A DNA stretch of 64,000 nucleotides from a virus, in IMG/VR virus record IMGVR_UViG_3300030019_000576. One strand, 5' to 3'. Made by a program: the position numbers and the translations under genes. Shown in pieces: positions 5,076 to 41,388 of this stretch; within the stretch, counting starts at the first letter, position 1, and each line of letters opens with the position of its first letter. Under the pieces are notes generated by a model. That model was not told the DNA's origin. It made no database searches and saw nothing but the letters and a program-made list of their open reading frames with translations.

Positions 5076-5139
5076 ATATTTGCGTAATTAAAAATTATTT
5101 CTTATCTTTGTATTCCAATTTTAATAAAAAGTTTAATAA

Positions 5140-5547
5140 ATGAATGATATAGTAATAAATATAATTACAAATACTGATAATTTAATAGATAATATGTTTT
5201 TATCTGATGGTAATAAACACCATTTAACCCAATATAATACATCTGAAATGTTTAAAGATTTATTAGATATAACTATTCAACTTTCAAATGATAAAATATG
5301 GATACCATCAAGAATTCATTATATAAAAGAATTAAAAAATAGTTCAGAATATAATTTAGTTGAATGTTTACAGTTTTGTAACTTAATAAAAGTTTTTGTT
5401 AATATAAATCCAAATGGATTTTTTAATCAGGGATTTTATGAGCTATATAATATGACTTTAAAAGATTTTCAATATATGTATAAAAATAATATTGATATAA
5501 ACCTAATGTTAAGAAGAAAAAAACTATTAAAAATATTTAAGAAATAA
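5140..5547 (+). CDS. hypothetical protein
   Basis: ATG ORF; TATCTTTG (TAnnTTTG) lies about 25 nt upstream on the + strand. Confidence 0.45.
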   Translation: MNDIVINIITNTDNLIDNMFLSDGNKHHLTQYNTSEMFKDLLDITIQLSNDKIWIPSRIHYIKELKNSSEYNLVECLQFCNLIKVFVNINPNGFFNQGFYELYNMTLKDFQYMYKNNIDINLMLRRKKLLKIFKK

Positions 5548-5641
5548 AATATAATATATTATTATAAATGTATATATCATGATCTTGCACGTTTTTTTGA
5601 AAAAACTTGTGTATTTCATATTTTTTTAGTATATTTGTACC

Positions 5642-6118
5642 ATGAAACTAAACGTAAAAATTTGTGTGGGAATACCTGCTTCTGGGAAGTCTACCTTTTC
5701 AGCACAGTATGTTTTTGATAATCCTGAAACAAAGCGTATAAACAAGGACTGTTTGAGGGAAATGTTTAATCCAGGTAAAGTTACCAAAGTAAACGAAAAC
5801 TTCATTAGAATGTCTCGTATGAAGTTAATTGAGCTATGTATGATAATGGATAGACATGTATTAATTGATGATACTAACTGTATCCAAGAAAGATTGGATG
5901 AACTTATATCAGATATTAAAATTGCAGCAAGTGCAATGGGTAAAAAAGTTGAAATTGAAATAATTGATTTTCAAACGGATTTTCAGACTTGTTTAGAAAG
6001 AAATAGAAATAGAAAAAAGGTTGTAGAAGAAAGATTTTTATATTTTATGCAAAAATCAAAAGATAATTTGGATTTTAAAGCACTTAAATTCCATACATAC
6101 ACAATAAAAAAGGACTGA
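5642..6118 (+). CDS. polynucleotide 5'-kinase-like P-loop kinase (T4 Pnk kinase-domain-like)
   Basis: Walker A GIPASGKST, INKDCLRE, LIDDTNCIQERL and a C-terminal ERNRNRKK align with the T4 Pnk kinase domain; no phosphatase domain is present. TATATTTGTACC abuts the ATG, so the mRNA may be leaderless. Confidence 0.6.
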   Translation: MKLNVKICVGIPASGKSTFSAQYVFDNPETKRINKDCLREMFNPGKVTKVNENFIRMSRMKLIELCMIMDRHVLIDDTNCIQERLDELISDIKIAASAMGKKVEIEIIDFQTDFQTCLERNRNRKKVVEERFLYFMQKSKDNLDFKALKFHTYTIKKD

Positions 6119-6137
6119 TTAATTTCAGTCCTTTTTT
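6104..6137. terminator. bidirectional rho-independent terminator
   Basis: AAAAAGGACTGA-TTAATT-TCAGTCCTTTTTT, a perfect 12-bp stem flanked by A- and T-runs, sits between convergent genes. Confidence 0.7.
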
Positions 6138-6140
6138 ATT

Positions 6141-6440
6141 TTATTTATTTTTTGATAAATAATCTATTATTTCAATACTATCTTCTATTTGAGTTAATGC
6201 AATTCGAAAGGTTAATCTCATAGTTGCGTTTTTATCAAATTCATTAATTTGTTGTTCATAGAATTTTTTTCTTTTTAGTAATTGTGTACGTTTAATTGTT
6301 AAAAATGCATCAGAAAGAACATTATTTTTTTCAATACCACGTTCTATTTCAGATTCACTGTCATTATAAACGACACCATTATTATCTTCATAACCTTCAT
6401 TCATTTTCTTATTTTCAAAATATTCATTAAAATTTGTCAT
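6141..6440 (-). CDS. hypothetical protein
   Basis: Co-oriented ORF. Confidence 0.4.
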   Translation of the reverse strand: MTNFNEYFENKKMNEGYEDNNGVVYNDSESEIERGIEKNNVLSDAFLTIKRTQLLKRKKFYEQQINEFDKNATMRLTFRIALTQIEDSIEIIDYLSKNK

Positions 6441-6447
6441 ATATATA

Positions 6448-7308
6448 TTATTTTTTCTTTTTATCTTCTTTACAACAAACTATATCATCATAGTTATCCA
6501 TAGTCAATACTTTTGTATCTTTTAATAATTTAAGTGCATTTTCTGTTGCTGTGTGTAAATCCATATCTGTTTTAGCATCTTCCCTTGCATATTCCAACAT
6601 ACGAATGAACAATGGTACATCCATTGTAATAGTATCTATTTTATCAGAATCTTTTTTATCTTCTTCATCCTTTGAATTCTTTTTTTCATTTAAAAACTGT
6701 TCAAAGTTTAAGACAGCACTTTCATTACTATTACCTGTTGGTTCATCAATTACAAGTTCACCTTTAGCACCACCTGGGATATCAACACTGATTTCATTTT
6801 CACGTGGGTTAGATTTATCTTGGATTTCTTTTATATCTTCAATATCACCGTTAAAACCGGTCCATTCTTTTGCAATATTATAAATTTTATCATATTTAAT
6901 ATCAGGAAACTTTTTCATTAGTGCATTAGTTAATGTTTCAGTATCATCAGCATTATCAGCATTTTTTCTCCAACTATTAAAATTTAATTCTAAATCATCT
7001 TTAATATTAGATTCAATGCTTTCAGTAATATAATCACCAAATTTAATTATTTCTAAATCTTCTTTTACTGTTTCGGGAAGACCTTTATGTTTAGTTGATG
7101 CAAAATCTTTTGCTTTATTCATTGATATACCTTTTGTTTTTTTTCTTTTGTCACCTGTTTTTCTTTTGGTACCATTAGCAATCCCTTTAATTTTATCAGC
7201 TAATGATTGTGGTAATTTGTCTAATTTCAAATCACCTTTTTCATATGCATATACCATACCCATGAGTCTTTGTTGTGATTTAGATGATGATTTTTCCTCG
7301 TTTAACAT
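6448..7308 (-). CDS. hypothetical acidic protein
   Basis: 286-aa ORF with a Lys-rich N-terminus and an acidic remainder; no recognisable motif. Confidence 0.45.
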   Translation of the reverse strand: MLNEEKSSSKSQQRLMGMVYAYEKGDLKLDKLPQSLADKIKGIANGTKRKTGDKRKKTKGISMNKAKDFASTKHKGLPETVKEDLEIIKFGDYITESIESNIKDDLELNFNSWRKNADNADDTETLTNALMKKFPDIKYDKIYNIAKEWTGFNGDIEDIKEIQDKSNPRENEISVDIPGGAKGELVIDEPTGNSNESAVLNFEQFLNEKKNSKDEEDKKDSDKIDTITMDVPLFIRMLEYAREDAKTDMDLHTATENALKLLKDTKVLTMDNYDDIVCCKEDKKKK

Positions 7309-7362
7309 ATAAGAAAATTATTTTATATTATATATAAAAATAATTATTGTATTATTATAAAA

Positions 7363-7397
7363 AAAAAGTATTTTATGTTATATAAAATACTTTTTAA
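7363..7397 (-). terminator. rho-independent terminator
   Basis: AAAAGTATTTTAT-gttatat-AAAATACTTTT hairpin immediately after the stop of 7400..8029. Confidence 0.55.
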
Positions 7398-7399
7398 TT

Positions 7400-8029
7400 C
7401 TATTGAAATAAACTTCTAAAATTTTTAATGTCTTCTGACTTTCTACTATTCCATATAGTATCATCAGATGTAGTGCTCATATCAGTCTCAATTTTGAAAT
7501 TTGTTAAATAAGATATAGGACACTTACATACTATTCTTAAAAAATCATCCCCACACCATATTTTTATATTATCAGGTATATCAACCCAATTCTTTTTATC
7601 AAATGCTATAAAGCATCCCCACCCAAATCGTTGTATATTCCTTTTATCTTCTTTACATATTATAGGTGCTTCATTATCTGTCGTGTAATTTGAAGTATCC
7701 ATCCCGATTATACCATATCTATCTAATCTATAAGGATTTAAAAATTTAAGAATAGATGTATTAAAATTAATATCATCATTAAGTAATGCAACCGAATAAT
7801 TTTTTGATAATTTAACACCTAAATTCCAAGCAGGATTCACAAATATATTTTGACCAGGTTGTATTAAATTTACTTTATGAAGTATTTTATCATAATGTTT
7901 ATAGTATTCATTGCTATTATCAATCAAAATTATTTCATCCACATCAGAACATTTTATTAAATCATCTAATAATTTATGTATTCTTTTTGATTTCCATAAT
8001 GTTGGTATTACTATTGATAATCTATTCAT
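7400..8029 (-). CDS. glycosyltransferase family 2-like
   Basis: N-terminal LSIVIPTLW...DEIILIDNS matches the GT-A fold signature. Confidence 0.5.
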   Translation of the reverse strand: MNRLSIVIPTLWKSKRIHKLLDDLIKCSDVDEIILIDNSNEYYKHYDKILHKVNLIQPGQNIFVNPAWNLGVKLSKNYSVALLNDDINFNTSILKFLNPYRLDRYGIIGMDTSNYTTDNEAPIICKEDKRNIQRFGWGCFIAFDKKNWVDIPDNIKIWCGDDFLRIVCKCPISYLTNFKIETDMSTTSDDTIWNSRKSEDIKNFRSLFQ

Positions 8030-8076
8030 AAAATATTTTATTTTTATATATTATAAAAACAGGGTTTTGTTTAAAT

Positions 8077-8106
8077 AAAAAACCCATAGAAAAATCTATG
8101 GGTTTT
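8077..8106 (-). terminator. rho-independent terminator
   Basis: AAAAACCCATAG-aaaaat-CTATGGGTTTTT hairpin after the stop of the sigma factor gene. Confidence 0.65.
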
Positions 8107-8109
8107 TAT

Positions 8110-8973
8110 TTAGTTAAGTCCGTGTTCATCAAGTAATTTAAACTTCTTGTTAACCATTGATTGTATTAACTGTCTACCTTTACTAATTTGTGATTTAATA
8201 GTTGAAAGATTTGTTGTTGTTTTATAAACCCCTATTAAAGAACCAATTGAATAAATTTCAATATCGTTGATATTCGATATTTCTTCACGATTTATATTAA
8301 ATATTGTTTGTGGTAAAATTTCAAATTCAATAACAATTTCTTTATCATAATGATTTTTATATGTAAATATAACATAGCTACTAACACTGCTATTATTTTC
8401 AAGTTCTAATGATAAAAATTCAGGTGTATCTTCCAATTTGAATGTTTCATCGTCAAGTTTTATTGAATATTCTTTTTTACATATATCAGCAATATCAAGA
8501 TACGTTTTATTTTCAATTTCCCGTAAAACCATAACATGTTTATATTTATCGGGTAACCTTTGAATTGCTTCTTTAACTAATTCTACTTTTTTTAATAAGA
8601 TTAAATCTTGTTCAGTTTTTACATCATCATATACCAAACTATTAGAAATAACCGTTGTAAGGTTTAAGTTATCATCATTTTGTTTATCCATAGAAACAAC
8701 ATTGAGTCGTTTTCTATCTTTATATTCTTTCTTTACTAAGTTTTCAGCTATTTTGTAAATCCATGTATGGATTTGTGATTTTTCAGCATTGAAGTTGTCT
8801 ATTTTTAATAGTGCTTGTGTAAATGCATCATCAGCAAAATCTTCTGCTATCTCTTGGTCTTTTGTGTATTTGGTCAGATGCCAAATTAATTTAGGTTTAT
8901 AAACTGCATAAAAATTAGAAAAATTAAGTCCAGTTATCTGTTCAAATTTGCGTGATAAGTTGTCGTTCAGCAT
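8110..8973 (-). CDS. RNA polymerase sigma factor, sigma-70/ECF type, with a C-terminal extension of about 110 aa
   Basis: Region 2 (IAEDFADDAFTQALLKIDNF, YKIAENLVKKEYKDRKR) and region 4 (LPDKYKHVMVLREIENKTYLDIADI) match ECF sigma architecture. Confidence 0.65.
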   Translation of the reverse strand: MLNDNLSRKFEQITGLNFSNFYAVYKPKLIWHLTKYTKDQEIAEDFADDAFTQALLKIDNFNAEKSQIHTWIYKIAENLVKKEYKDRKRLNVVSMDKQNDDNLNLTTVISNSLVYDDVKTEQDLILLKKVELVKEAIQRLPDKYKHVMVLREIENKTYLDIADICKKEYSIKLDDETFKLEDTPEFLSLELENNSSVSSYVIFTYKNHYDKEIVIEFEILPQTIFNINREEISNINDIEIYSIGSLIGVYKTTTNLSTIKSQISKGRQLIQSMVNKKFKLLDEHGLN

Positions 8974-9023
8974 AATAATATTTTGTTTTTAAATATGGGT
9001 TAGTATAGGTTTATATTATATCA

Positions 9024-9063
9024 AAAAAGTGGAAAGAAGTTTGTTTTATTTTCCACTTTTTTG
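9024..9063 (-). terminator. rho-independent terminator
   Basis: AGTGGAAA...TTTCCACT stem followed by TTTTTTG, just after the stop of 9083..11053. Confidence 0.55.
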
Positions 9064-9082
9064 ATATTTTCCTATTTAATAA

Positions 9083-11053
9083 TCAATTTCTTCTTCTAAC
9101 CCTGAATGGATGGTAGTCGTAATTGTTTGTGAAATTTGATTCATCCGCAAATAAATCACGTAGTTCATCTGTTAATTCATTTCCTTCTTCTGAATCAATT
9201 ATATGAATATCTTCTTCAACTTGTCTTGGTTGAAAATCATAAGCATCATAACCATCATACGAAACATTTCTGCGTTGAACTACTGGTTCATCATTTACAA
9301 CTTGTCGAGGTGATTCATCATTTGTAACTTGTCGAGTTGATTCATCATTTGCAACTTGTCGAGGTGATTCATCATTTTCAACTTGTCGAGGTGTTTCAAA
9401 TATGTCTGCCATAGTCTGTCCACCAGGCATGGTAATATGCCCAAGACTTCTACTACCAGTAAGACTTCCATAGAGTGAATTATGTGATACTGAATATGTT
9501 TCATACATTTGATGTAGAGCTTCGGAAGAAGAAGTTAACGTACTTCTTAATCGTCTTGGATCGATTGTTTGTTCTAAATCAGTTTCAGATGGTTCAACAC
9601 CACCATCTTCTACATCATATTGACCCCTATCAGTACGTGGTGCTCTATAATAAGAACCATAAGAATCACCCATACTCTTTTTTTGTTTAGCTTTTCTATT
9701 CTTTAAATAGGTTTCCCTCACTTCATTTGAATAAAAAATTCTACCATTACTTTCTTCAAATTCTACTCCAATAAGTTTGTAATGAATAATAACTTCTTTA
9801 TCTTCCAAATAAGCAGTTCTTGCACTATTTTTGTATATAAATGTATCCATGTATTCAGACCAAATCGCTTCATCAACTAAGAAATATTTAGTGTTACCTA
9901 ACACATTAGAACAAACTATTTTAGGACTTTTGTTATATGCTTTTCTTTCACCTGTATTATGAACATAAACTTCATCACCACGATATACCCATGTTTCATC
10001 AATATCAACATAAACAGCTTCATCTTCTAATATATTTTCATTATAGAATGTACTAAATACACGTGGTCTATCATCAACTTCTGAATGATAACGACCTTGA
10101 TAATCAGTTAAAATAATATGACCAGTTGTAGTACGCAAATCACCATTATTTGATAAAACATGAGTTTCCTTATTATATATTGATAAACTATCAAGATAAG
10201 GATAATATTCATAATGACGTTCAGGGTGTTTATTCAATGTTACTTGAAGAAGCATATCACGATATTCATAAACTGAATTAGTTGTAGGGTCAGCAATTTT
10301 GTTAAACCAACCATAACGTTGTTCAGTTCTATATAACCATCCTTGTTCTTTTGCGTAGTTTTTGAAAATTTCAATATCAAAATCATTCACAGTATAAATT
10401 CTATCCATGAATATACGTTTACTTGGAACTTCTAAATTCCAAAGTATTGCACGACCTTTTAATTTACCTGCATCATCTTTCAATATTAACATACTGAAAA
10501 CATCTGTATTTGAAGTATACATTCCAAGGAATTTACCTGATTCAGTATAACGCATACAAGATTTACCAAGCGGTGTTTCTTGATGTGCAAAACGTGAATA
10601 GTTTTGGTGGTCATACCAAAAACGGATGTCTTCACCTGTAACTACTTCAAAACGTGCGTAGTTAACATTTTTTTCACGTTCAGCTTTAAACATATTAACA
10701 AATGATTCAATATCATTTCTTGTTCTTGGTGCTGGACAATCTTTTGGTTGATTTACAGGAAAATGGTCTTCAAACATCATTTTAATGAGTTTACCAATTT
10801 TCAGATTTGTTCGCTTATCAGTCCAAACAAGTTCTTTCCAAGATACTTCATTAGCACGTACCAATTCCATAAATTTATTGTTGATAATATATGATACATT
10901 ATCATTTTCATTACCAAAATCTAAATATGAAATTCTATCATATTCTTTGTTACGAATTCTGTCTAACAAAGCAAATGATATTTGATGTTCAATGTTACTT
11001 AACATTTCAATAAGTCTTTGTGATGCTTCTAATCTAATGTCTCCACTTTTCAT
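9083..11053 (-). CDS. large hypothetical protein with a C-terminal 9-aa tandem repeat
   Basis: 656-aa ORF with an ATG start. The C-terminal region contains at least four copies of (S/T)PRQVxNDE. No catalytic motif is recognised. Confidence 0.5.
   Translation of the reverse strand: MKSGDIRLEASQRLIEMLSNIEHQISFALLDRIRNKEYDRISYLDFGNENDNVSYIINNKFMELVRANEVSWKELVWTDKRTNLKIGKLIKMMFEDHFPVNQPKDCPAPRTRNDIESFVNMFKAEREKNVNYARFEVVTGEDIRFWYDHQNYSRFAHQETPLGKSCMRYTESGKFLGMYTSNTDVFSMLILKDDAGKLKGRAILWNLEVPSKRIFMDRIYTVNDFDIEIFKNYAKEQGWLYRTEQRYGWFNKIADPTTNSVYEYRDMLLQVTLNKHPERHYEYYPYLDSLSIYNKETHVLSNNGDLRTTTGHIILTDYQGRYHSEVDDRPRVFSTFYNENILEDEAVYVDIDETWVYRGDEVYVHNTGERKAYNKSPKIVCSNVLGNTKYFLVDEAIWSEYMDTFIYKNSARTAYLEDKEVIIHYKLIGVEFEESNGRIFYSNEVRETYLKNRKAKQKKSMGDSYGSYYRAPRTDRGQYDVEDGGVEPSETDLEQTIDPRRLRSTLTSSSEALHQMYETYSVSHNSLYGSLTGSRSLGHITMPGGQTMADIFETPRQVENDESPRQVANDESTRQVTNDESPRQVVNDEPVVQRRNVSYDGYDAYDFQPRQVEEDIHIIDSEEGNELTDELRDLFADESNFTNNYDYHPFRVRRRN
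9284..9396. repeat. 27-bp tandem repeat, about 4 copies, inside the 9083..11053 coding sequence
   Basis: ttcatcatttRYaacttgtcgagKtga repeats head to tail and encodes PRQVxNDES units. Confidence 0.7.
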
Positions 11054-11090: not shown

Positions 11091-11132
11091 GTGCAAAGGT
11101 AATATAATTTTTTGAATTACCAAATTATTTTC
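11091..11132 (-). promoter_or_regulatory. conserved phage promoter motif (Bacteroidota sigma-A type: TTTG then TAnnTTTG)
   Basis: gtgcaaaggtaatataattttttgaattaccaaat. Its minus-strand reading is ATTTGGTAATTC...TATTACCTTTGCAC, placed upstream of the 11053 start. Confidence 0.5.
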
Positions 11133-11835: not shown

Positions 11836-12234
11836 TTATTTATTTTCAAATGCACTATAACTTTCTAACCATGTTGAATTCCATTCCCTGCGGTCATCTT
11901 CCATTTTTTTGTTGAAGAAAAATTCAACAGTTTCACATCCGAAAAAATCTTTAATTTGACTTTCTAAAAATGCTACTGTTAATTTATTTGTACCACAAAT
12001 ATTATAGACTTCCCTTTCAAAACTTTTCCATTTAGGTTGATTAGTCCAAACTGTTACGTGTGTTGTATCATGTGTGAATATGTGGTCTGTATAACCTGCA
12101 AACCATTCTTCTATATTTTTTACATCACCATCAGGACGATGTGACATGTATTTTACAAATTTTAAGAATAATAATTGTTCAGGTGCTAACCTTGCTTCTT
12201 TAATCAGTTTGATTTTACTTCTAACATCACCCAT
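11836..12234 (-). CDS. hypothetical protein (the ORF-track start at 12270 is a TTG; the ATG at 12234 is preferred)
   Basis: The promoter motif at 12251-12285 lies inside the TTG extension; MGDVRSK follows the ATG. Confidence 0.4.
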   Translation of the reverse strand: MGDVRSKIKLIKEARLAPEQLLFLKFVKYMSHRPDGDVKNIEEWFAGYTDHIFTHDTTHVTVWTNQPKWKSFEREVYNICGTNKLTVAFLESQIKDFFGCETVEFFFNKKMEDDRREWNSTWLESYSAFENK

Positions 12235-12250: not shown

Positions 12251-12285
12251 ATTATGCAACAAAGATACAATAATTTTTTTTATCT
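12251..12285 (-). promoter_or_regulatory. conserved phage promoter motif
   Basis: attatgcaacaaagatacaataattttttttatc is a variant of the ACAAAGATAATACAA core. Confidence 0.4.
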
Positions 12286-12315
12286 ACAAAATTTTTTTGC
12301 AATATTTTTAAATAA

Positions 12316-12534: not shown

Positions 12535-12900
12535 TTATTTTATAAGATTTAATGCAAATCTTAAACCAATTTCTAATGCTTCTTCCCATGTTTTAAAATT
12601 ATGATATTTAACATCAGTATTTTCTAATAAGAAATCATATGATCCAATATTAGTTATTATATCATTTCTATGTATTACTGTTAAATGAATATTCTTTTCA
12701 TCCCTTAACCATTTTTGTAATGATGTTTGTGTTGGTGCTGATATTCTTATTGGAATCAGTAAATTATTACTATATCCACCATGTACTTCATCATCATCAT
12801 CATCATATATATTATAGAAGGTGTAATTAAGTTCAGTATAACCATTATCCTTTGCAAGCATTGCAGTGTCACGTGTCACGTAATCCATTTTATCTTTCAT
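12535..12900 (-). CDS. LQKWLRDE-family protein (paralog 1 of 3)
   Basis: Shares AKDNGY, PTQTSLQKWLRDE and a C-terminal ALEIGLRFALNLI with 12910..13293 and 23677..24108. Confidence 0.5.
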   Translation of the reverse strand: MKDKMDYVTRDTAMLAKDNGYTELNYTFYNIYDDDDDEVHGGYSNNLLIPIRISAPTQTSLQKWLRDEKNIHLTVIHRNDIITNIGSYDFLLENTDVKYHNFKTWEEALEIGLRFALNLIK

Positions 12901-12909
12901 AATATTGTA

Positions 12910-13293
12910 TTAATCAATTAAACTTAAACCATACCTTAAACCGTCTTCAAACGCTTCTTCAAACTTATCATATCTATTAATAGGTTTATCTTTAATATCA
13001 TGATTTACATGCTTACCATTTACGGTGCAAATAAATTCTAAAGTATTATCAAATGATAAAGATTCCCTTGGTGATACATATATTTTAAATTCATCCCTTA
13101 ACCATTTTTGCAAAAGTGCTTGTGTTGGACGTGTTGTATATTCAAGTCCACAATCACCATAACTACGATTATGGTCTTCTTTTTGTGGTACCGTTGACAT
13201 TGGTCTCACCCCTATGAAATATTCATATGTTTTTATTCGAAATCCTTTTTCTTTTGCAATTCTTGCTGTTTCAATTGTTATGTAATCTTCCAT
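12910..13293 (-). CDS. LQKWLRDE-family protein (paralog 2 of 3)
   Basis: ETARIAKEKGF, PTQALLQKWLRDE, EAFEDGLRYGL. Confidence 0.5.
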   Translation of the reverse strand: MEDYITIETARIAKEKGFRIKTYEYFIGVRPMSTVPQKEDHNRSYGDCGLEYTTRPTQALLQKWLRDEFKIYVSPRESLSFDNTLEFICTVNGKHVNHDIKDKPINRYDKFEEAFEDGLRYGLSLID

Positions 13294-13513
13294 TTCTTAT
13301 TTTTTCTATTTTTTGTCTTCTTAATATTAATATTGCTTCTTTGTAAGATAACGACATTTTAAAATCTCTGCAAAATTCAAGTTGTTCAGATAAAGGAAAT
13401 CTATATTTAACTCTATCTTCTTTATTTCTTTGTGTATATATATAATATGCAAGGTTATCTAAATCAGTTGCTTCTTTGAAATTCCATTTTCCACTCTTTT
13501 TATCAATTTTCAT
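13271..13513 (-). CDS. IDK-GxW / EKIEKI-tail small-protein family member
   Basis: MKIDKKSGKW...LDNLAYYIY...RRQKIEKIRNG. Confidence 0.45.
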   Translation of the reverse strand: MKIDKKSGKWNFKEATDLDNLAYYIYTQRNKEDRVKYRFPLSEQLEFCRDFKMSLSYKEAILILRRQKIEKIRNGRLHNN

Positions 13514-13730
13514 TTTTAGATTTCAATTTTAGTATTTTTTCAATTCTTATTTGATGAAATGCTTGTTCATAAAAACTATCTTTATATAGTGCTACCATAA
13601 ATTTCTTTTGTGATGGTACCGAAAAATTTTCACCGAAATTATAATATGTATATAAAAATAATGTATATGCAACATCATCAACTTGTGATGCATTTTCATC
13701 CCATTCACCATGACTTTTATCAATTAACAT
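13503..13730 (-). CDS. IDK-GxW / EKIEKI-tail small-protein family member
   Basis: MLIDKSHGEW...VDDVAYTLFLY...IRIEKILKLK. Confidence 0.45.
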   Translation of the reverse strand: MLIDKSHGEWDENASQVDDVAYTLFLYTYYNFGENFSVPSQKKFMVALYKDSFYEQAFHQIRIEKILKLKSKNEN

Positions 13731-13971
13731 ATTCTATTCTTTTTTTAATTCTTTCAATTTTACAATATCTAATATATATTTCAGCTTCTGTGTAATATTT
13801 TTTTGCAAAATCATCTTTTTCTGAAATTAAACCATGTTGACACAAACCAGGTGCTACTTTATCAGTTATATATAAATAATAAGCAATATCATCTAATTTT
13901 GATGAATTTGAATACCAATCTATATCCCTTATATTTATATTTAGTTTCCTATCACCCTTATCAATTATCAT
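13720..13971 (-). CDS. IDK-GxW / EKIEKI-tail small-protein family member
   Basis: MIIDKGDRK...LDDIAYYLYI...CKIERIKKRIEY. Confidence 0.45.
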   Translation of the reverse strand: MIIDKGDRKLNINIRDIDWYSNSSKLDDIAYYLYITDKVAPGLCQHGLISEKDDFAKKYYTEAEIYIRYCKIERIKKRIEYVN

Positions 13972-13972
13972 A

Positions 13973-14251
13973 TTAAATATTAGTTCTTTCTTTAATTTTT
14001 AATATTTTCAAACTTCTTATTTTCAGAATTTTTTCACTTCTTAATACAAGTTCTGCACTGTTATAAATACCAATGCAACCATTACCTTTATTTTTCCTAT
14101 TAAATGACATTATAAAGGATTGTGATAATACATTATCAATATTTACACCATTGTTTAAAACACGATTTAAATATAACTGATATGCAACATCATCCATTTG
14201 ATTTGAATTTCTATCCCAATCACCCTTACTTTTGTCTATTTTTAATTCCAT
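13973..14251 (-). CDS. IDK-GxW / EKIEKI-tail small-protein family member
   Basis: MELKIDKSKGDW...MDDVAYQLYLN...RSEKILKI. Confidence 0.45.
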   Translation of the reverse strand: MELKIDKSKGDWDRNSNQMDDVAYQLYLNRVLNNGVNIDNVLSQSFIMSFNRKNKGNGCIGIYNSAELVLRSEKILKIRSLKILKIKERTNI

Positions 14252-14483: not shown

Positions 14484-14739
14484 TTTTTATTTTTTCTATT
14501 TTTTCACGTCTTATAATATTTTTTGCTTTTTCATAAACTATTGTATAATAATTATAATTATTTTGATTAACAGAAAGATAAAAATATTCAATAAATGTTA
14601 TTTGTGGGAACATCTTAATCTGAAAAATATCATCAGGGAATTTAATAGTATATTCATTAACATTAAGTTGGTATGCAACATCATCAAGATAACTTGTTTC
14701 TTCCGCACACCAAATACCTTTAGTTTTATCAATCAGCAT
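14458..14739 (-). CDS. IDK-GxW / EKIEKI-tail small-protein family member
   Basis: MLIDKTKGIW...LDDVAYQLNVN...RREKIEKIKNG. Confidence 0.45.
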   Translation of the reverse strand: MLIDKTKGIWCAEETSYLDDVAYQLNVNEYTIKFPDDIFQIKMFPQITFIEYFYLSVNQNNYNYYTIVYEKAKNIIRREKIEKIKNGINLQRL

Positions 14740-15244
14740 AAAATAAATTATTTTTATTATAGTTTATAATAGGATTAACATCAGATACATATTTCATTTT
14801 AGCAATATGTAGCATATCATCACTATTAATAGATTCTTTAATTGAAGAAGAAAATAAAGTATTTGATTCAACAATACTATCCCAATCACAAGGTAATGAA
14901 AAGTAATATGCTTCATCTATATCAGAAACAATCATACCAGTGTAAAAACCTTTTAAACCATATTTTTCAAAGAATACGTTAGCATTACACCAAATACAAA
15001 CACATTGTTTTTCACGTAGTAAATATACTAAGTCAGAATTAATTACGAAACGCTTATATGTAAAGTCATATAAACCTTCTTCCGAACCATGACCTAACAT
15101 TATAATTCTGTCATATTCTTTTATAATTCGCTTTAAATCACCTTTACTTTTATTTGAAGTTATAACAGTCCAATCTGTACCTTTATAGATTTCAGATAAG
15201 AAGTCAGTTGATGAATCTTTTGGATGTAGTACTAATGTTTTCAT
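14729..15244 (-). CDS. hypothetical protein (possible Rossmann-like fold)
   Basis: ATG ORF; alternating KTLVLHPKD and RIIMLGHGSEEG beta-strand-like segments; unassigned. Confidence 0.45.
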   Translation of the reverse strand: MKTLVLHPKDSSTDFLSEIYKGTDWTVITSNKSKGDLKRIIKEYDRIIMLGHGSEEGLYDFTYKRFVINSDLVYLLREKQCVCIWCNANVFFEKYGLKGFYTGMIVSDIDEAYYFSLPCDWDSIVESNTLFSSSIKESINSDDMLHIAKMKYVSDVNPIINYNKNNLFYAD

Positions 15245-15300
15245 AATGCAAATATACGAATAATAATTGGAATAACAAAATATTATTCGTAATTTATTTG
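15245..15300 (-). promoter_or_regulatory. variant promoter motif with an embedded hairpin, in a divergent intergenic region
   Basis: atgcaaatatacgaataataattggaataacaaaatattattcg; stem ACGAATAATA/TATTATTCGT. It lies between the divergent starts at 15244 (-) and 15338 (+). Confidence 0.35.
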
Positions 15301-19457: not shown

Positions 19458-19790
19458 TTATTTAATTTTAATATGTAAATATTCTAATTCTTTTTTATTT
19501 TCTGCAAATTTTAAATAAATATCTTCAATTGATAATCCATCGTCCATACATTTATTATAAAAATTACGTATACAAGTATCATAATTTCGTAAATCATCAG
19601 TTAATACATCAGTTGTATAAAACGTCCACATACCAGAACTATTTGATGCAGCCTTTTCAGCTTTATTTAAAAAATAATCCCAATCTAAATGTCTTTGTTT
19701 AAAGACTTCCTTAAATTTTTCAATACTATACCTATAATATTTTGTTAATTCTGTATAAGTATCTTTTTGTTCGATTGATATGATTTCCAT
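19458..19790 (-). CDS. hypothetical protein
   Basis: ATG ORF with a promoter motif upstream. Confidence 0.45.
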   Translation of the reverse strand: MEIISIEQKDTYTELTKYYRYSIEKFKEVFKQRHLDWDYFLNKAEKAASNSSGMWTFYTTDVLTDDLRNYDTCIRNFYNKCMDDGLSIEDIYLKFAENKKELEYLHIKIK

Positions 19791-19809: not shown

Positions 19810-19845
19810 TACAAAGATAACATAAATAATTGGAATCTACAAATT
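19810..19845 (-). promoter_or_regulatory. conserved phage promoter motif
   Basis: tacaaagataacataaataattggaatctacaaatt. Confidence 0.45.
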
Positions 19846-22127: not shown

Positions 22128-22165
22128 TTCGATACAAAGATACATAAAATAATTATTATAATAAA
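22128..22165 (-). promoter_or_regulatory. conserved phage promoter motif
   Basis: cgatacaaagatacataaaataattattataat. Confidence 0.4.
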
Positions 22166-22180
22166 AAGTTTCAACATTTT

Positions 22181-22525
22181 TTATGTTAAAACTTTGTTAA
22201 TATCTCTTAAAATTATAGCAAAATTATAATCTTCAACTTCAACTGCTTCTTTCAAAGCAAATTTTATTTGTTCACTATCATTTATATTTACAAAATGTAT
22301 AGAAGGTGTCCATTTAAACCCCCTTGTTTCTTGAATACTATTACAGTTAGTGCATTCACCATCAAATAATGTAGTTTTATATCCCGCACTAATATATTGT
22401 GTACCGCATTCACTACAAGTGAGTATTTCTGATACCGTATAAATATTACCTTTAATTCTTGGATGTGCGCAAGTAGAATCTGAACTTTCTAATGCTATAA
22501 TTTTGTCACCTATTTTATGTTTCAT
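22181..22525 (-). CDS. hypothetical Cys-rich protein (possible zinc ribbon)
   Basis: SDSTCAHP...CSECGTQY...DGECTNCN is a four-Cys pattern. Confidence 0.4.
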   Translation of the reverse strand: MKHKIGDKIIALESSDSTCAHPRIKGNIYTVSEILTCSECGTQYISAGYKTTLFDGECTNCNSIQETRGFKWTPSIHFVNINDSEQIKFALKEAVEVEDYNFAIILRDINKVLT

Positions 22526-22534: not shown

Positions 22535-22915
22535 TTAGATAAACGTGATTTCAGAAGAAGTCATTACTTCCGAAGTAAAAATAATAGATTTGTTATCCTT
22601 TAAACGAATTGTTTCAATTGGATATTTACGTTTACGTTCATTGATACCATTAACACGATAAGATGTACCTTTATATAAAAACTGTTTTCCAATCAAATCT
22701 GATGGTAATCCATTATTTCTTAAAAAATACACGTTATTCATGATTGTAGATTCAATATTACGTGTTTTAGCTGTAAGTCTTGTAGTAAAACGATTAGCTT
22801 CAAATGTAATATTACCAATAGATAAATCAATACCATACTGTGACGATACTAATGCTAATGCACAATCAATTGATTTCCTTAAATCTACCAAATTTTGTTT
22901 ATCGAACTGTCTCAT
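22535..22915 (-). CDS. hypothetical protein
   Basis: ATG ORF; canonical promoter motif upstream. Confidence 0.45.
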   Translation of the reverse strand: MRQFDKQNLVDLRKSIDCALALVSSQYGIDLSIGNITFEANRFTTRLTAKTRNIESTIMNNVYFLRNNGLPSDLIGKQFLYKGTSYRVNGINERKRKYPIETIRLKDNKSIIFTSEVMTSSEITFI

Positions 22916-22940: not shown

Positions 22941-22977
22941 GGTACAAAGATAATACAAATATTTGAATTACCAAAAT
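22941..22977 (-). promoter_or_regulatory. conserved phage promoter motif (canonical copy)
   Basis: ggtacaaagataatacaaatatttgaattaccaaaat. The minus-strand reading is TTTGGTAATTCAAATATTTGTATTATCTTTGTACC, i.e. TTTG, then 19 nt, then TATCTTTG (TAnnTTTG). Confidence 0.55.
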
Positions 22978-22989: not shown

Positions 22990-23664
22990 TTATTCTAATC
23001 TTTCCCAATCTATTGGGTATTTTGATTTTAGTTCAGTCATCCACCAAACAGTTTTTACTTTAGATTTAGGTAAACGTTGACCTTTCATAAGGGTAGAACG
23101 CTTGCATACAACACCTTCTTTAACTGTTGGGTACAAACACCCAACTTTAGTCCAATCGTTGTTCTCAATTGACCATATGAAGTCTTTAGTTAACTTACCA
23201 ACGTATATTACTTCTGGTATTTCAATTTCATCAACATGTGCAAATAATTTATAAAATTCTTTTGGTTCAATATATCCTTTTTTATATAAGAATATATCAA
23301 TAAGACAAAGTTTCAATGGTTCACCTGGTACATGGAATCCACTGAATGTGTGTTCACCATACCATTCAAAAAATACTGTTATTTCTTTCACACCATTAAA
23401 AACCCCATTTTTAGAAGAATTTTTAATAAGTATTTCTTTAAGTCTTTCTTCTAAATTTGTTTTAAAATATTTAACAGCATCACCAAATTGTTCACTTGAT
23501 TCATCAACATTTTGTGTCTTAGAACCAAACATAGGGAATTCTTTTTGTTTAGGTGAAAACTTTGCACAGAAATTCTGTCCATCTATTTTATTAAATGCCC
23601 AAATTTCTTCACCCAATAAGGTACCATCGTATTTTATATTTTCAAAACTATCGTAATGTTTCAT
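22990..23664 (-). CDS. RNA ligase, Rnl2-like nucleotidyltransferase
   Basis: Motif I AFNKIDGQN (KxDG), FFEWYGE (motif III-like), EGVVCK (motif IV EGxVxK); the N-terminal HYDSFEN resembles T4 Rnl2 KYSSLEN. Confidence 0.55.
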   Translation of the reverse strand: MKHYDSFENIKYDGTLLGEEIWAFNKIDGQNFCAKFSPKQKEFPMFGSKTQNVDESSEQFGDAVKYFKTNLEERLKEILIKNSSKNGVFNGVKEITVFFEWYGEHTFSGFHVPGEPLKLCLIDIFLYKKGYIEPKEFYKLFAHVDEIEIPEVIYVGKLTKDFIWSIENNDWTKVGCLYPTVKEGVVCKRSTLMKGQRLPKSKVKTVWWMTELKSKYPIDWERLE

Positions 23665-28200: not shown

Positions 28201-28449
28201 TTAATTTAAAGGTTGTTCTTCTAATTCATTACCATCCCAATCAAATACTTTGTAAATTTCACCACCGAATTCATCATCAAGTTTAATTTTAATAACAACC
28301 CACCACCAAAGATAGTCACGGTTACTAAAATCTGAATTATCATTAATCCAATCAATTACTTTATCCATTGATGAACTAAGGAAACAATTTGAATCTTCTG
28401 TTTCGAAATTACCTTTCCGTCTTTCTATAATATAATAATCCATTTTCAT
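28201..28449 (-). CDS. hypothetical protein
   Basis: ATG ORF directly downstream of a terminator-promoter cassette. Confidence 0.4.
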   Translation of the reverse strand: MKMDYYIIERRKGNFETEDSNCFLSSSMDKVIDWINDNSDFSNRDYLWWWVVIKIKLDDEFGGEIYKVFDWDGNELEEQPLN

Positions 28450-28462: not shown

Positions 28463-28484
28463 AAGTACAAAGATACAATAAAAA
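28463..28484 (-). promoter_or_regulatory. conserved phage promoter motif
   Basis: gaagtacaaagatacaataaaa abuts a terminator hairpin. Confidence 0.45.
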
Positions 28485-28517
28485 ATCCGATAAACAAAAT
28501 TTTTATCGGATTTTTTT
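28481..28517 (-). terminator. rho-independent terminator (AATAAACAAAAT-loop class)
   Basis: AAAAATCCGATAAA-caaaattt-TTATCGGATTTTTTT, immediately after the stop of 28521..28871. Confidence 0.65.
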
Positions 28518-29329: not shown

Positions 29330-29725
29330 TTAAAAGTTAGACTTAATATAATCAAATATTTTATTCATTTTACGTTCATGAATATATCTTGATTCTTCAA
29401 CTAAACAATCAATTCTATTTTCATAGGATTCCATATCATCAATAGATAATTGATTGATTTCATCAAGTTTTGAATATTTTTCATATTGATAAAGACTATC
29501 TTGAGTTATTATGTAAGATGAAAATATTTCTTCCATATCAGAAAACTGATAAGATTCAATATCTTCATAATCTAAAAACGTGTATGGTTTACCATCACAT
29601 ATTTCATTTTCTGAAAAATGTTTCATAAGATGACCATATGTTTTTGATTTGCGTTCAAGTTCAGCAAAGTCAAAAATACAGTCTTCGTGGAAATCGTTAT
29701 TTAAACTAATTAATACTTCTTTCAT
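29330..29725 (-). CDS. hypothetical protein (start moved to ATG 29725; track start 29758 is a TTG)
   Basis: The promoter motif at 29732-29755 lies in the TTG extension; MKEVLISLN follows the ATG. Confidence 0.4.
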   Translation of the reverse strand: MKEVLISLNNDFHEDCIFDFAELERKSKTYGHLMKHFSENEICDGKPYTFLDYEDIESYQFSDMEEIFSSYIITQDSLYQYEKYSKLDEINQLSIDDMESYENRIDCLVEESRYIHERKMNKIFDYIKSNF

Positions 29726-29731
29726 AATTGT

Positions 29732-29755
29732 GGTACAAAGATAATACAAAAATTC
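29732..29755 (-). promoter_or_regulatory. conserved phage promoter motif
   Basis: ggtacaaagataatacaaaaattcc. Confidence 0.45.
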
Positions 29756-29787
29756 CAATAAACAAAATATTTATTGGAATTTTAAAA
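29747..29787 (-). terminator. rho-independent terminator (AATAAACAAAAT-loop class)
   Basis: AAAAATTCCAATAAA-caaaatat-TTATTGGAATTTTAAAAT, after the stop of 29795..30049. Confidence 0.6.
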
Positions 29788-31854: not shown

Positions 31855-32337
31855 TTATTTTTTAAACTGTTTATGCATTTTTGCTGTAAAATCTACACTT
31901 TCTATTCGTCTCCATTTTAAATTTGTTTCATATTTCATTGAGTCATATATATGTGCTCTTTTCATAATTTTATATGGAAGTTCACATTTTTCTTTAACCC
32001 ATTCAAATAATTCAATATTTTCTTTTGGTATATAATATTTAACCCAACCTTCATGTCCACGTTGTACCATTATTCCTGTTGTTTCTTGAATAAAATCTAA
32101 TGCACAATCATAAGATTCATACATATAATTTTCCCTCCAATAATCATAATACAAATCAGTTACTTTTGCAACAAAGAACCATTTAAATTCAATATATGCT
32201 TTTACCCTTTCATCAAACTGTTTTGGAAAAGGTGTTGGTTTTATTTTATCTTGTTTTTCATGCTTTTTCATTAAATATTTACTTGCGTAATAATTAATGT
32301 TTATTATATTATAATCAGACGATTTCTTTTCTTTCAT
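31855..32337 (-). CDS. hypothetical protein
   Basis: Co-oriented ORF. Confidence 0.4.
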   Translation of the reverse strand: MKEKKSSDYNIININYYASKYLMKKHEKQDKIKPTPFPKQFDERVKAYIEFKWFFVAKVTDLYYDYWRENYMYESYDCALDFIQETTGIMVQRGHEGWVKYYIPKENIELFEWVKEKCELPYKIMKRAHIYDSMKYETNLKWRRIESVDFTAKMHKQFKK

Positions 32338-32404
32338 ATATTTAAGTTTTAAGGATATAAAGATAGTGATAATTTTTGATATAACAAAACATATTAGTTT
32401 TAAT

Positions 32405-34274: not shown

Positions 34275-34317
34275 AGTGTTTATTATATTCTATAACTTTT
34301 TAAGTGAAAAGTTTATT

Positions 34318-37266: not shown

Positions 37267-37719
37267 TTATTTTTTAAATTTAAATTCTTCGTAACTTTTA
37301 GAACCTTTTCTACTATTACATTTTTTACAAGAAACGACCCAATTTTTTTCATCTAATAAGTTTACTTTTCCAGAACTCATTGGTATAACATGGTCAACAG
37401 TTGCTAACATTTTATTCTTATTATTTAAAGCTGATTGATTAATTAGTCTATATCCAACTTCTAAATGTATTTTACCACAATAATGACATACTAAATCACC
37501 TGTTCTACGTTTTTCCTTTAATAAAAATATAAAACGTCTATTCAAATATTCTTGTATTTCATACATACCTTTCAAATAGTCTTCATCCATTTCTTTTAAA
37601 TAATCATTTAAAAGAATAAGAGCTGCTTGTGATTTAATTGATACATTATCATCATTATAAATCAGATGATTTACAACTGTATTACCCGAAGAAGACTTAT
37701 GATATGTTATTGTTTTCAT
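37267..37719 (-). CDS. HNH endonuclease (start moved to ATG 37719; the track start is an upstream extension)
   Basis: CHYCGK...VDHVIPMSSGK...NWVVSCKKCNSRKG is an HNH motif with flanking Cys pairs. The promoter-like motif at 37721-37765 is inside the extension. Confidence 0.65.
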   Translation of the reverse strand: MKTITYHKSSSGNTVVNHLIYNDDNVSIKSQAALILLNDYLKEMDEDYLKGMYEIQEYLNRRFIFLLKEKRRTGDLVCHYCGKIHLEVGYRLINQSALNNKNKMLATVDHVIPMSSGKVNLLDEKNWVVSCKKCNSRKGSKSYEEFKFKK

Positions 37720-37720: not shown

Positions 37721-37765
37721 ATGAATACAAATATACAACAAATTTTTCGATATACCAAATAATAA
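37721..37765 (-). promoter_or_regulatory. variant promoter motif
   Basis: aatgaatacaaatatacaacaaatttttcgatataccaaataat. Confidence 0.35.
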
Positions 37766-37770: not shown

Positions 37771-37800
37771 AAAAAGTGACTAATATAGCCACTTTTTAAT
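37771..37800 (-). terminator. weak hairpin terminator after the flotillin gene
   Basis: AAAAGTGac...gcCACTTTTTAA, a short stem with a T-run. Confidence 0.3.
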
Positions 37801-40212: not shown

Positions 40213-40524
40213 TTAATTATTTTCATCAGTTTCTTTTTCTTTTTGGTATTCTTTAAGTTTCTTAGTCATTAAAGCAGTACCAATTGTGAATACAACAGCA
40301 GCTACAAGTATTAATGGTAACGCAGCTAAAACTTCGGTTTTTTTACTTGATAATACTATAATAAGTATAACACAAATCCAACTAATAATTGCTAAACCCT
40401 TACTTTGACGGATTTGACTTTTCAATGCTTCTTCCATATTATTTTTCTGTTTTAGTTTTAAAAGTTTCACGTGTTTTTGTTGATAAGAATCCATAATCAG
40501 CAGTAAGTTTTTTGCATCCAACAA
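40213..40524 (-). CDS. small membrane protein
   Basis: Two TM helices. Confidence 0.35.
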   Translation of the reverse strand: MLDAKNLLLIMDSYQQKHVKLLKLKQKNNMEEALKSQIRQSKGLAIISWICVILIIVLSSKKTEVLAALPLILVAAVVFTIGTALMTKKLKEYQKEKETDENN

Positions 40525-41311
40525 ATTTATTATATAAATTATTTGGGAATGTGTCTAACATTGCATTGTTTAAATTCGATAATGCAATACATTCTTTTTC
40601 AATATTAAAATATCCCTCACGTTGTGTAGTAATAAAAACACTTAAATCTGAATAGAATGTAGTGAATTGGTCATATGGTATTTGTTGATTTTCTTGTAAC
40701 CACTTCCATGTTAGATTTTTTCCATCAGCACGGTTTTCCATGATAAGTTTGGTAACTTCAATAAAAGTTTGCTTATCCATGTTAGTGATTTTTTCTTTCT
40801 GATTGTAGGTAGTCCACATTTTATCATAAAATCCCGCTTTTTCTTGGACTTTTGCATTAAATGCATATTGGTATTTGATTGATTGGTTATACATTGAACT
40901 ACCATCTTTGAATATACCAATTCCTAATTTAAATAAGTTTATAACAATATAAAATGATATAAATAATATAAGACCTTTTTTCCAAGTGAATCCTTTTTTA
41001 TTTACTTTAATATTTGGTTCAGTTGATTTATTTTTCTTTTCATTGTCATGTTTATAAGTATTGTAAAGATTACGTAAATCCTTATCTGCCCAATCCCAAA
41101 TGGTAATTATATACATTACAACCAATCCAATTATGGTAATTATGTTAAATACACAATGTAATCCACCGAATGTATTAGTAATACCATAACTATGTGATTC
41201 CATATAATCACCAGGAAATTTCAAACCCCATGTATATCCAACACCTAATGAAAGGATAATAAGAACACCTAATAGAAATAGGTAAAATTGCGTTTTAGTA
41301 AGTTTATTCAT
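40439..41311 (-). CDS. multi-pass membrane protein
   Basis: Several hydrophobic helices; ATG start with a promoter motif upstream. Confidence 0.45.
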   Translation of the reverse strand: MNKLTKTQFYLFLLGVLIILSLGVGYTWGLKFPGDYMESHSYGITNTFGGLHCVFNIITIIGLVVMYIITIWDWADKDLRNLYNTYKHDNEKKNKSTEPNIKVNKKGFTWKKGLILFISFYIVINLFKLGIGIFKDGSSMYNQSIKYQYAFNAKVQEKAGFYDKMWTTYNQKEKITNMDKQTFIEVTKLIMENRADGKNLTWKWLQENQQIPYDQFTTFYSDLSVFITTQREGYFNIEKECIALSNLNNAMLDTFPNNLYNKFVGCKKLTADYGFLSTKTRETFKTKTEK

Positions 41312-41350: not shown

Positions 41351-41388
41351 TTTGACAAAGGTAATACAAATATTTTAATTACCAAATT
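41351..41388 (-). promoter_or_regulatory. conserved phage promoter motif
   Basis: tttgacaaaggtaatacaaatattttaattaccaaatt. Confidence 0.5.

Follow-up and report, generated by a model that had tools for sequence, protein, structure and literature searches.

Host-type -33/-7 promoter motifs between the genes of a megaphage-related virus and their probable recognition by a Bacteroidota primary sigma factor

Introduction

The 64,000-nucleotide (nt) stretch of viral DNA analysed here, IMG/VR record IMGVR_UViG_3300030019_000576 (hereafter the window), carries between its genes a recurrent motif of two blocks, TTTG and TA[T/C][C/A]TTTG, separated by 19 or 20 nt of semi-conserved spacer, which is probably a promoter read by the primary sigma factor of a Bacteroidota host. 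The window has a guanine-plus-cytosine (GC) content of 25.2% and about 129 open reading frames (ORFs), 118 of which lie on the minus strand, and its non-coding share is 7.3%. Its genes encode a TonB-dependent receptor (47024-48997), NadR-like, PARG-like, IF3, DnaJ, and ClpP proteins, radical SAM enzymes, and an RNA ligase, together with a histidine kinase/response regulator and an ECF-type sigma factor (8110-8973); a transfer RNA (tRNA) scan of the 64-kb window found no tRNA gene. The copy on which the analysis was centred lies at 22945-22975 on the minus strand and consists of TTTG (22975-22972), the 19-nt spacer GTAATTCAAATATTTGTAT, and the -7 box TATCTTTG (22952-22945). Its first letter stands 15 nt past the stop codon of ORF 22990-23664; the ATG of ORF 22535-22915 follows 29 nt after its last, and for this ORF a transcription start site (TSS) at approximately 22940 and a 25-nt leader are predicted on the minus strand.

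Composition and distribution of the motif

The window holds 23 copies, 20 on the minus strand and three on the plus strand (-7 boxes at 5103, 5630, and 55471). All 23 are intergenic and all 23 are co-oriented with the next gene, the plus-strand copies included, in a window that is 93% coding. The first-pass annotation, which had been made from the letters of the window, reported a motif of roughly 35 nt recurring at least 18 times and listed 19 positions; a TAnnTTTG box lies within a few nt of every one of these (19/19), and four more copies (5103+, 5630+, 55471+, and 32358-) were found beyond them. The recurrence is thus borne out, but the 35-nt repeat is not: the 36-nt sequence offered as its consensus is the copy at 22941 itself and, at up to three mismatches, matches no other site, and the element is therefore a two-block motif rather than a 35-nt repeat.

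The -7 box reads TATCTTTG in 15-16 copies, TATATTTG in four, TACCTTTG in two, and TACATTTG and TATCTTTA in one each, the last at copy 32358. It agrees exactly with TAnnTTTG in 22 of the 23 copies, TATCTTTA being the exception, and G occurs at the two middle positions in none (0/23). At -33, 18 of 23 copies have an exact TTTG and three have (A/C)TTG, while two (22135 and 54214) lack the element. Among full two-block sites the spacer is 19 nt in 11 and 20 nt in seven, and never 17, 18, 22, or 23 nt; a 19-nt spacer had originally been proposed. In the aligned copies, an A-rich stretch lies upstream of the -33 TTTG, G/T-T-A-A-T directly follows it, and a mid-spacer 'AAA' shows A at two adjacent columns in 18/22 and 21/22 copies; a T-T-G/T segment is found 3-6 nt before the -7 box, or G immediately before it, and T-A after it. 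Furthermore, the spacer holds a direct repeat of the self-complementary word AAATATTT followed by G, where about 1 bit per position is reached. The conserved span starts roughly 30 nt ahead of the -7 box and stops 2 nt beyond it, corresponding to about -41 to -3 relative to the predicted start; outside it, information content is at background.

The word TATCTTTG occurs 20 times in the window, as compared with 5.2 +/- 2.3 times in shuffles; in intergenic DNA it is present 15 times, whereas intergenic composition predicts 0.34; ATCTTTGT and TATCTTTG are the top-ranked words in an unbiased 8-mer comparison of intergenic and coding DNA. The pattern TTTG-N18-20-TAnnTTTG was found at 18 sites (3.8 +/- 2.1 in shuffles), 17 of which are intergenic. 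A two-block position weight matrix (PWM) was made from 22 aligned copies, and a scan of the window with it yielded one more intergenic copy, that at 32358 (19.6 bits). Leave-one-out scores of the 22 seeds range from 18.0 to 45.7 bits, the highest belonging to the focal copy 22945, whereas the best coding-region score is 11.7 bits and the maximum over 20 composition-preserving shuffles is 15.9 bits. The motif is therefore not equally frequent inside coding regions, a distribution that the first-pass annotation had named as one that would speak against a promoter, the coding best of 11.7 bits standing against at least 18 bits in the copies. The loose word TAnnTTTG is not enriched in the window (122 versus 135 expected); because the DNA is AT-rich, this word alone is uninformative as a detector.

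Probable identity as a Bacteroidota primary-sigma promoter

The primary-sigma promoter of Bacteroidota has TTTG at -33 and TAnnTTTG at -7, the latter box lying at -12 to -5; the consensus comes from work on Bacteroides fragilis and Flavobacterium, and TSS maps have confirmed it (PMC7366714, PMC9723704, PMC6847099). The -7 consensus has been refined to TAHHTTTG (PMC6847099), transcription starts 4-5 nt downstream of the box (PMC6847099, PMC9723704), TTG-N17-23-TANNTTTG has been quoted for Flavobacterium (bioRxiv 10.1101/172254), and promoters of F. johnsoniae in general carry AT-rich motifs centred at -18 and -28 (PMC6847099). We consider the motif of the window to be a promoter of the host primary sigma factor (Bacteroidota sigma-A, sigma-ABfr), with a probability of about 0.86, because sequence, spacing, intergenic placement, and co-orientation all fit. 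Like sigma-ABfr promoters, the copies have both boxes at the described spacing, no G in the middle of the -7 box, and AT-rich spacer features, and they stand upstream of genes whose starts are A-rich and devoid of Shine-Dalgarno (SD) sequences. The motif has no TATAAT at -10 and does not belong to the σ70 class (-35 TTGACA/-10 TATAAT). Sites of the type TTGACA-N16-18-TATAAT were not enriched in any of the three 20-kb blocks scanned (positions 1-60000), with 169, 156, and 162 sites against 190, 169, and 186 expected from shuffles.

SD-like 4-mers precede only one of 128 genes of the window, and gene starts have A at -3 in 70%, A at -13 to -10 in 61-73%, and T at -1 in 65% of cases; an SD-less, 'Kozak-like' A-rich start context has been described for Bacteroidota (PMC6847099). 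The Bacteroidota-type architecture put forward in the first-pass annotation is therefore upheld by boxes, spacing, and placement, by the lack of σ70-type enrichment, and by the absence of SD sequences; it is upheld likewise by the extended form of the motif, whose matches in bacterial genomes are to Bacteroidota in 11 of 12 cases, and by megaphage relatives with predicted Bacteroidetes hosts, both of which are described below.

Several observations weigh against this identification. The function is deduced from sequence alone in an uncultured phage; approximately 18 gaps of at least 35 nt lack the motif, which means that promoters of other types must be present; the spacer shows more conservation in the window than in a generic set of two-block sites; the window encodes a sigma factor of its own; and in regions of two related megaphage genomes (L001 and L002) the orthologous receptor genes have no promoter at a matching position but lie inside operons without one, and only two same-type sites occur in L001. 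Because L001 and L002 are too distant, they were rejected as promoter comparators.

Individual copies and predicted leaders

The predicted start was placed at the fifth nucleotide after the final G of the -7 box. On the minus strand, TTTG-N20-TATCTTTG is found at 2787-2818 (gene 2205-2771, predicted leader 11 nt), 19812-19843 (gene 19458-19790, 17 nt), 49591-49622 (gene 49353-49565, 21 nt), and 52320-52351, where a 13-nt leader is predicted for gene 52045-52302 and the PARG-like gene 51333-52055. The same boxes separated by 19 nt occur, again on the minus strand, at 12260-12290 (gene 11836-12234, 21 nt), 28468-28498 (gene 28201-28449, 14 nt), 29736-29766 (gene 29330-29725, 6 nt), 45469-45499 (gene 45100-45453, 11 nt), and 62976-63006, which precedes gene 62728-62949 and the RNA ligase gene 61760-62707 by a predicted leader of 22 nt. 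Four minus-strand copies with the -7 box TATCTTTG depart from TTTG at -33: that at 22135-22165 has TTTA, and its gene start was re-set to 22111 (predicted leader 19 nt); that at 54214-54244 has a degenerate TTTT (gene 53863-54198, 11 nt); that at 49035-49066 has ATTG-N20 and, with a predicted leader of 33 nt, lies upstream of the block of TonB-dependent receptor, unknown, and NadR-like genes (45506-48997); and that at 61206-61236 has ATTG-N19 and a predicted leader of 76 nt to the next ORF of at least 40 codons (60979-61125, 48 amino acids). Within the leader of the last copy, a 6-codon mini-ORF (ATGAAAAAAGTAAATTATTAG; region 61160-61200, minus strand) stands ahead of the 48-amino-acid ORF, and the arrangement is a candidate for either a small upstream ORF or a leader with a regulatory role.

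The -7 box TATATTTG follows TTTG on the minus strand at 15249-15279 (N19; gene 14729-15244, predicted leaderless) and 37728-37759 (N20; gene 37267-37719, 4 nt), and TACCTTTG follows TTTG-N19 at 11094-11124 (gene 9083-11053 of 656 amino acids, 36 nt) and 41356-41386 (gene 40439-41311, 40 nt). TTTG-N20-TACATTTG at 41920-41951 (minus strand; gene 41621-41905, 10 nt) has its -33 element overlapping the 3' end of ORF 41939-42400, and the weaker copy recovered by the PWM at 32358-32388 is TTTG-N19-TATCTTTA (minus strand; gene 31855-32337, 16 nt). The three newly found plus-strand copies are TTTG-N20-TATCTTTG at 5079-5110 (gene 5140-5547, 25 nt), CTTG-N20-TATATTTG at 5606-5637 (gene 5642-6118, predicted leaderless), and TTTG-N19-TATATTTG at 55448-55478 (gene 55506-55727, 23 nt).

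Predicted leaders thus measure 0, 0, 4, and 6 nt, then 10-40 nt, with one of 76 nt, and have a median of approximately 17-18 nt, whereas leaderless or very short (<10 nt) 5' untranslated regions account for 3.7-5.5% in hosts, with medians of 24-32 nt (PMC7366714, PMC9723704). At both of the 4-nt gaps between box and ATG (genes 5642-6118 and 14729-15244) the predicted TSS falls exactly on the A of the ATG, and the arrangement TATATTTG-TACC-ATG at gene 5642 is as originally described. The expectation of leaderless or short-leader messengers, with gaps of about 5-30 nt, holds in part: leaderless transcripts are predicted for only two of 23 copies and leaders of 4-6 nt for two more, the median is modestly below host medians, and the measured gaps are 4-44 nt with one of 80 nt.

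Terminator-like hairpins at the promoters

The 85 nt upstream of each copy were folded and then checked with a folding tool, stability being given as folding free energy (dG) and as z relative to shuffles. Six sites on the minus strand combine a stem-loop with a U-tract in the manner of an intrinsic terminator (dG -11 to -15 kcal/mol, z -4.6 to -6.8). A hairpin with a T-tract at 2817-2863 (dG -12.2 kcal/mol, z -4.6) abuts the -33 element of copy 2787, and a 13-bp hairpin with a T-rich tail at 22165-22195 (dG -11.4, z -4.9) occupies the -33 position of copy 22135. Just upstream of copy 37728 lies a hairpin with a T8 tract (37771-37797; dG -12.2, z -6.8), and a G+C-rich hairpin with a T6 tract (63023-63046; dG -14.1, z -4.8) lies upstream of copy 62976. 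The remaining two overlap their promoters: the 15-bp hairpin at 28480-28516 (dG -15.1, z -5.5), terminator-like on both strands, has the -33 TTTG of promoter 28468 in its loop and its T-tract as the spacer, and the hairpin at 29749-29783 (dG -14.1, z -4.9) has the -33 TTTG of promoter 29736 in or beside its loop and its T-tract likewise as the spacer. Between these two homologous cassettes the stem has changed twice, both times in a compensatory way (G-C to A-U and A-U to U-A); from two sequences only, this argues that the hairpin itself is maintained.

Furthermore, two hairpins on the minus strand span the promoter itself. One is at 15255-15291 (dG -10.8, z -4.4; copy 15249), and the other, of 17 bp, reaches from the -33 element into the -7 box at 49596-49634 (dG -19.9, z -7.5; copy 49591), where the -7 TTTG region would act as a U-rich tail. 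For the remaining 15 of 23 copies no convincing hairpin was found in the folded upstream 85 nt. The hairpins placed by the first-pass annotation at 2831, 28481, and 29747 are accordingly present (2817-2863, 28480-28516, and 29749-29783), and its statement that many copies are fused to terminators narrows to six clear and two promoter-spanning cases of 23, about a third.

Extended consensus in hosts and other phages

An extended search pattern that includes the spacer, TTTGGTAATTNAANNNNTTNTATTAYCTTTG, was run against public viral and bacterial collections. The 31-nt pattern was found in seven viral contigs of 24-43% GC, whose likeness to the window is confined to the motif, and in 12 bacterial genomes, where a rough composition-based estimate gives fewer than one match by chance. 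Eleven of the 12 are Bacteroidota (Prevotella, Segatella, Paludibacteraceae, Prevotellaceae, Bacteroidales, and two 'Bacteroidetes bacterium' metagenome-assembled genomes), and the twelfth is a 3-kb contig binned as Fibrobacteraceae. A tRNA gene follows the pattern at a distance of 16-32 nt in six genomes (four with tRNA-Met, one each with tRNA-Arg and tRNA-Gln), and in five the gene downstream of it has a conserved hairpin leader. The promoters of host tRNA genes (Prevotella, Segatella, Bacteroidales, and others; L017, L018, L020, L021, L023, and L024) resemble the phage copies in near-identical 31 nt, spacer included (TTTGGTAATTnAAnnnnTTnTATTAYCTTTG), and differ in that stable RNA genes follow 16-32 nt downstream and TACCTTTG-CA is favoured, whereas the phage copies precede protein genes and favour TATCTTTG-TA.

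Two low-GC viral contigs are of note for promoter density. The first, L010 (IMGVR_UViG_3300030019_000177), has five near-consensus promoters in 8 kb (5171-7722) beside an array of 10 tRNA genes, and the second, L011, has three in 1 kb (569-772). The conserved leader hairpin, GGGGACT(C/T)GA(A/C)AAAGTCCCC, is found downstream of the motif in Paludibacteraceae/Prevotellaceae (L019, L022, L025, and L026) and Bacteroidales (L016), between the strong promoter and the ATG (ATGATTAATAAAGA...), without an Rfam match, and could be an undescribed cis-regulatory leader of Bacteroidales. Rfam searches of the window and of loci with structured leaders 3' of the motif gave no family at threshold.

A BLAST search of the 45-nt focal copy against annotated phages returned weak E-values and chance AT-rich matches (Sulfolobus, Bacillus, and Staphylococcus), and therefore only directly inspected sites were used. 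Elizabethkingia phage TCUEAP2 and the crAss-like phage cr111_1 both carry sites of the same form that are intergenic and co-oriented with the next coding sequence, in the latter case a DpsA-like gene; one same-form site was found in Prevotella phage Lak-A1, a 40-kb region of which has only one site above 17 bits and was therefore uninformative as to density. The 12 bacterial loci (79 kb fetched) contain one distinct non-query site with a 19-nt spacer, which is too few for a spacer logo, and a scan of viral contigs that leaves the spacer free (TTTG-N19-TATCTTTGTA) was used instead. Its 125 unique sites in diverse viral contigs show the same tendencies more weakly, with G after TTTG, 58-64% A at three mid-spacer columns, T-rich sequence before the -7 box, and A upstream of TTTG.

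An additional factor-binding site had been suggested on the ground that conservation reaches past the -33 and -7 elements. As a phage-specific feature such a site is not supported: the same extended sequence precedes tRNA genes of Bacteroidota and occurs in unrelated phages, and a phage-specific factor site is therefore unnecessary. Judged from these occurrences, the spacer extension would largely be a property of strong promoters in the phylum and not a private signal of the phage, and the tighter conservation among window copies could be due to a regulator superimposed on the promoter, to homogenisation within the genome, or to selection for strength. Tentatively, and with less than even confidence, the occurrences may be generalised to a 'super-consensus' class of Bacteroidota promoters of about 40 nt, comprising an upstream A-tract, TTTG-G, a mid-spacer A-tract, T-rich/TG sequence before the -7 box, and TA after it, which would be common to a megaphage, unrelated phages, and host tRNA genes and which the phage would also have merged with terminators, to the point of placing the -33 element in the terminator loop. 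Such a class may reflect polymerase/sigma contacts outside the textbook description, e.g., an extended -7 element and spacer and UP-like contacts; a literature search on the structure of a Bacteroidota holoenzyme on a promoter found nothing directly relevant.

Alternative explanations

In a genome of 25% GC, an AT-rich word might recur without function, and the lack of overall enrichment of the loose TAnnTTTG word, together with the generally greater frequency of AT-rich words in intergenic DNA, points that way; however, the intergenic excess of TATCTTTG, the strict spacing, the co-orientation of all 23 copies, and leave-one-out scores that all exceed the shuffle maxima leave this explanation a negligible probability, and a chance origin of the motif is excluded. 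It is rather improbable that the copies are a dispersed mobile or recombinogenic cassette whose similarity stems from recent duplication or gene conversion. Four of them (11094, 22945, 41356, and 45469) form a subfamily in which about 30 of 36 nt agree, the homology of cassettes 28468 and 29736 is clear and takes in their hairpins, and small unknown genes with tandem paralogues abound in the region, but conservation reaches no further than about 30 nt ahead of the -7 box and a few nt beyond it, which is about the footprint of polymerase, variation follows the functional consensus, and the same sequence stands in unrelated genomes. No indel polymorphism bounded by a copy was seen in the near-identical contigs L003-L008, and a cassette would explain spread and not function, and is compatible with promoter activity; duplication may have contributed to the origin of the copies.

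The remaining alternatives concern the protein that reads the motif. The ECF-type member of the sigma-70 family encoded at 8110-8973 (minus strand, 287 amino acids) has regions 2 and 4 and approximately 120 extra C-terminal residues, and with the tighter spacer of the window copies it is what favours a phage-specific promoter read by such a phage factor and not by the host primary sigma. ECF promoters have an AAC-type -35 element. They carry, furthermore, a conserved CGT in the -10 region (PMC9723704), whereas the aligned copies have no CGT-type -10; the identical extended motif stands before bacterial tRNA genes and in unrelated phages, and no copy of the motif stands upstream of the sigma gene, where the gap 8974-9082 carries a TATAATATA-like word instead. 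Recognition by a phage factor is thus highly improbable, and the ECF sigma was rejected as reader of the motif on promoter type and on the presence of the motif in bacterial genomes. It is also unlikely that the promoter doubles as an operator, the spacer and promoter-spanning palindromes binding a regulator that switches units together. The AAATATTT-G direct repeat and the hairpins or palindromes that span the whole promoter at 15255-15291 and 49596-49634 would suit such a role; by contrast, the same extended sequence is present at host tRNA promoters of several Bacteroidota families and in unrelated phages, the spacer-free scan shows the same tendencies, F. johnsoniae promoters have AT-rich motifs at -18 and -28 (PMC6847099), and no candidate regulator was identified.

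Phage context and other intergenic elements

The block of TonB-dependent receptor, 181-amino-acid unknown, and NadR-like (cytidylyltransferase plus AAA_28) genes at 45506-48997 on the minus strand is syntenic with LR745206 (635 kb) and LR756502 (642 kb), the receptor identity being 42-51% at the amino acid level; in these relatives the block lies at 16885-20353 of L001 and 17336-20726 of L002, regions of LR756502 and LR745206, respectively. ClpP, a radical SAM enzyme, and the 399- and 656-amino-acid unknowns also have homologues in the LR756502/LR745206 regions, and the clade of these two genomes has been predicted to infect Bacteroidetes (PMC7162821). The window contig recurs in several environmental assemblies; contigs L003-L008 are 99.9-100% identical to it and consequently hold no comparative signal.

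Gaps without the motif often carry the word ATATAATA(T/A)A ('TATAATATA') about 15-46 nt before the ATG, namely at 2133-2204, 7309-7399, 8030-8109, 8974-9082, 34275-34317, 51275-51332, 57014-57104, and 58880-58931. Several of these gaps have their own hairpin and T-tract upstream, with examples ahead of the ECF sigma, IF3, and DnaJ genes. A second class of promoter may be marked by the word TATAATATA, whose enrichment is modest (8 versus 2.95 +/- 1.7 in intergenic shuffles). A perfect 16-nt palindrome, TATGTTATATAACATA, lies at 63660-63675, and related TATGTTATA half-sites lie at 63088, 63710, 63862, 54267, 54280, and 7374. Eight of 10 such copies are intergenic, and two places hold clusters of them, a non-coding stretch of 464 nt (63537-64000) and the divergent gap 54199-54293; their placement suggests a candidate regulator binding site, and their overall count in the window is not significant (10 versus 5.5). 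At 12697-14240, neighbouring small ORFs are connected by short internal repeats in the DNA that extend over 39-76 nt at 76-87% identity, which suggests tandem paralogous small genes.

Proposed mechanism and comparison with known systems

What the analysis shows directly is how the motif is composed, spaced, placed, and oriented, how stable its hairpins are, and how it is distributed among taxa. Sigma-A binding, start sites, promoter strength, expression timing, and termination are what we infer for the host-type promoters, and the predicted scheme is as follows. Host RNA polymerase holoenzyme would bind the -33 TTTG and the -7 TA[T/C][C/A]TTTG, 19-20 nt apart, and would start transcription 4-5 nt after the final G of the -7 box. 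The 23 starts, which on the same strand are about 0.6-8 kb apart and lie in an arm of accessory genes of a giant phage, would give units of one to about 10 genes. A hairpin like an intrinsic terminator would, at six copies, end the upstream unit just before or inside the promoter, and in two cassettes the -33 element as loop and the U-tract as spacer would yield compact insulator cassettes. The copies are near-consensus and have flanks of the host-tRNA type, and are therefore probably strong promoters recognised constitutively without a phage factor; strong constitutive recognition would suit early expression.

T4-type phages have promoter/stem-loop cassettes (PeSL), and the 'morons' of lambdoid phages are promoter-gene-terminator units. 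The copies of the window are like both in that host-type promoters are paired with stem-loops bordering small accessory gene units, and unlike them in that sigma factor and consensus are different and the hairpin precedes or overlaps the promoter; no evidence of shuffling by cassettes came from the near-identical contigs L003-L008 or the very distant relatives L001 and L002. Within Bacteroidota, the cultured Bacteroides fragilis phage Bf12P1 has putative -33/-7 TTTG promoters ahead of early, middle, and late gene clusters (PMC13139388). Both are phages of Bacteroidota, the host of the window phage being predicted, with host-type -33/-7 promoters in intergenic DNA ahead of gene blocks that are, or would be, co-expressed, although the window phage is uncultured, a relative of megaphages of >630 kb known from its sequence only, and has 23 promoters in 64 kb, some of them merged with terminators. 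The -33 TTTG is regular in the phage (18/23), whereas it is barely visible in F. johnsoniae (PMC6847099), and the density of 18 full two-block sites in 64 kb is unlike typical chromosomal DNA, represented by the one non-query spacer-19 site in 79 kb of bacterial loci.

Significance

Because the promoter type and its use by phages of Bacteroidota have already been described, nothing here changes current understanding, and the motif is a clear but ordinary case of a phage borrowing host transcription signals. New are the high density in a relative of megaphages, the identity of the extended consensus with host tRNA promoters, and the promoter-embedded terminators. The motif is a pointer, at the level of sequence, to a Bacteroidota host, and it agrees in this with the absence of SD sequences, the TonB-dependent receptor gene, and kinship to megaphages predicted to infect Bacteroidetes. 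The 23 near-consensus promoters and the six compact terminator-promoter cassettes are candidate expression parts for Bacteroidota. Strong phage-derived promoters were reportedly presented as Bacteroides expression tools by Whitaker et al. in 2017. The link between the extended consensus and host tRNA promoters offers a small, testable lead on strong promoters in the phylum. For the phage itself, the copies provide a first, predicted transcription map, in which 64 kb of mostly unknown small genes would be split into units readable by the polymerase of the host.

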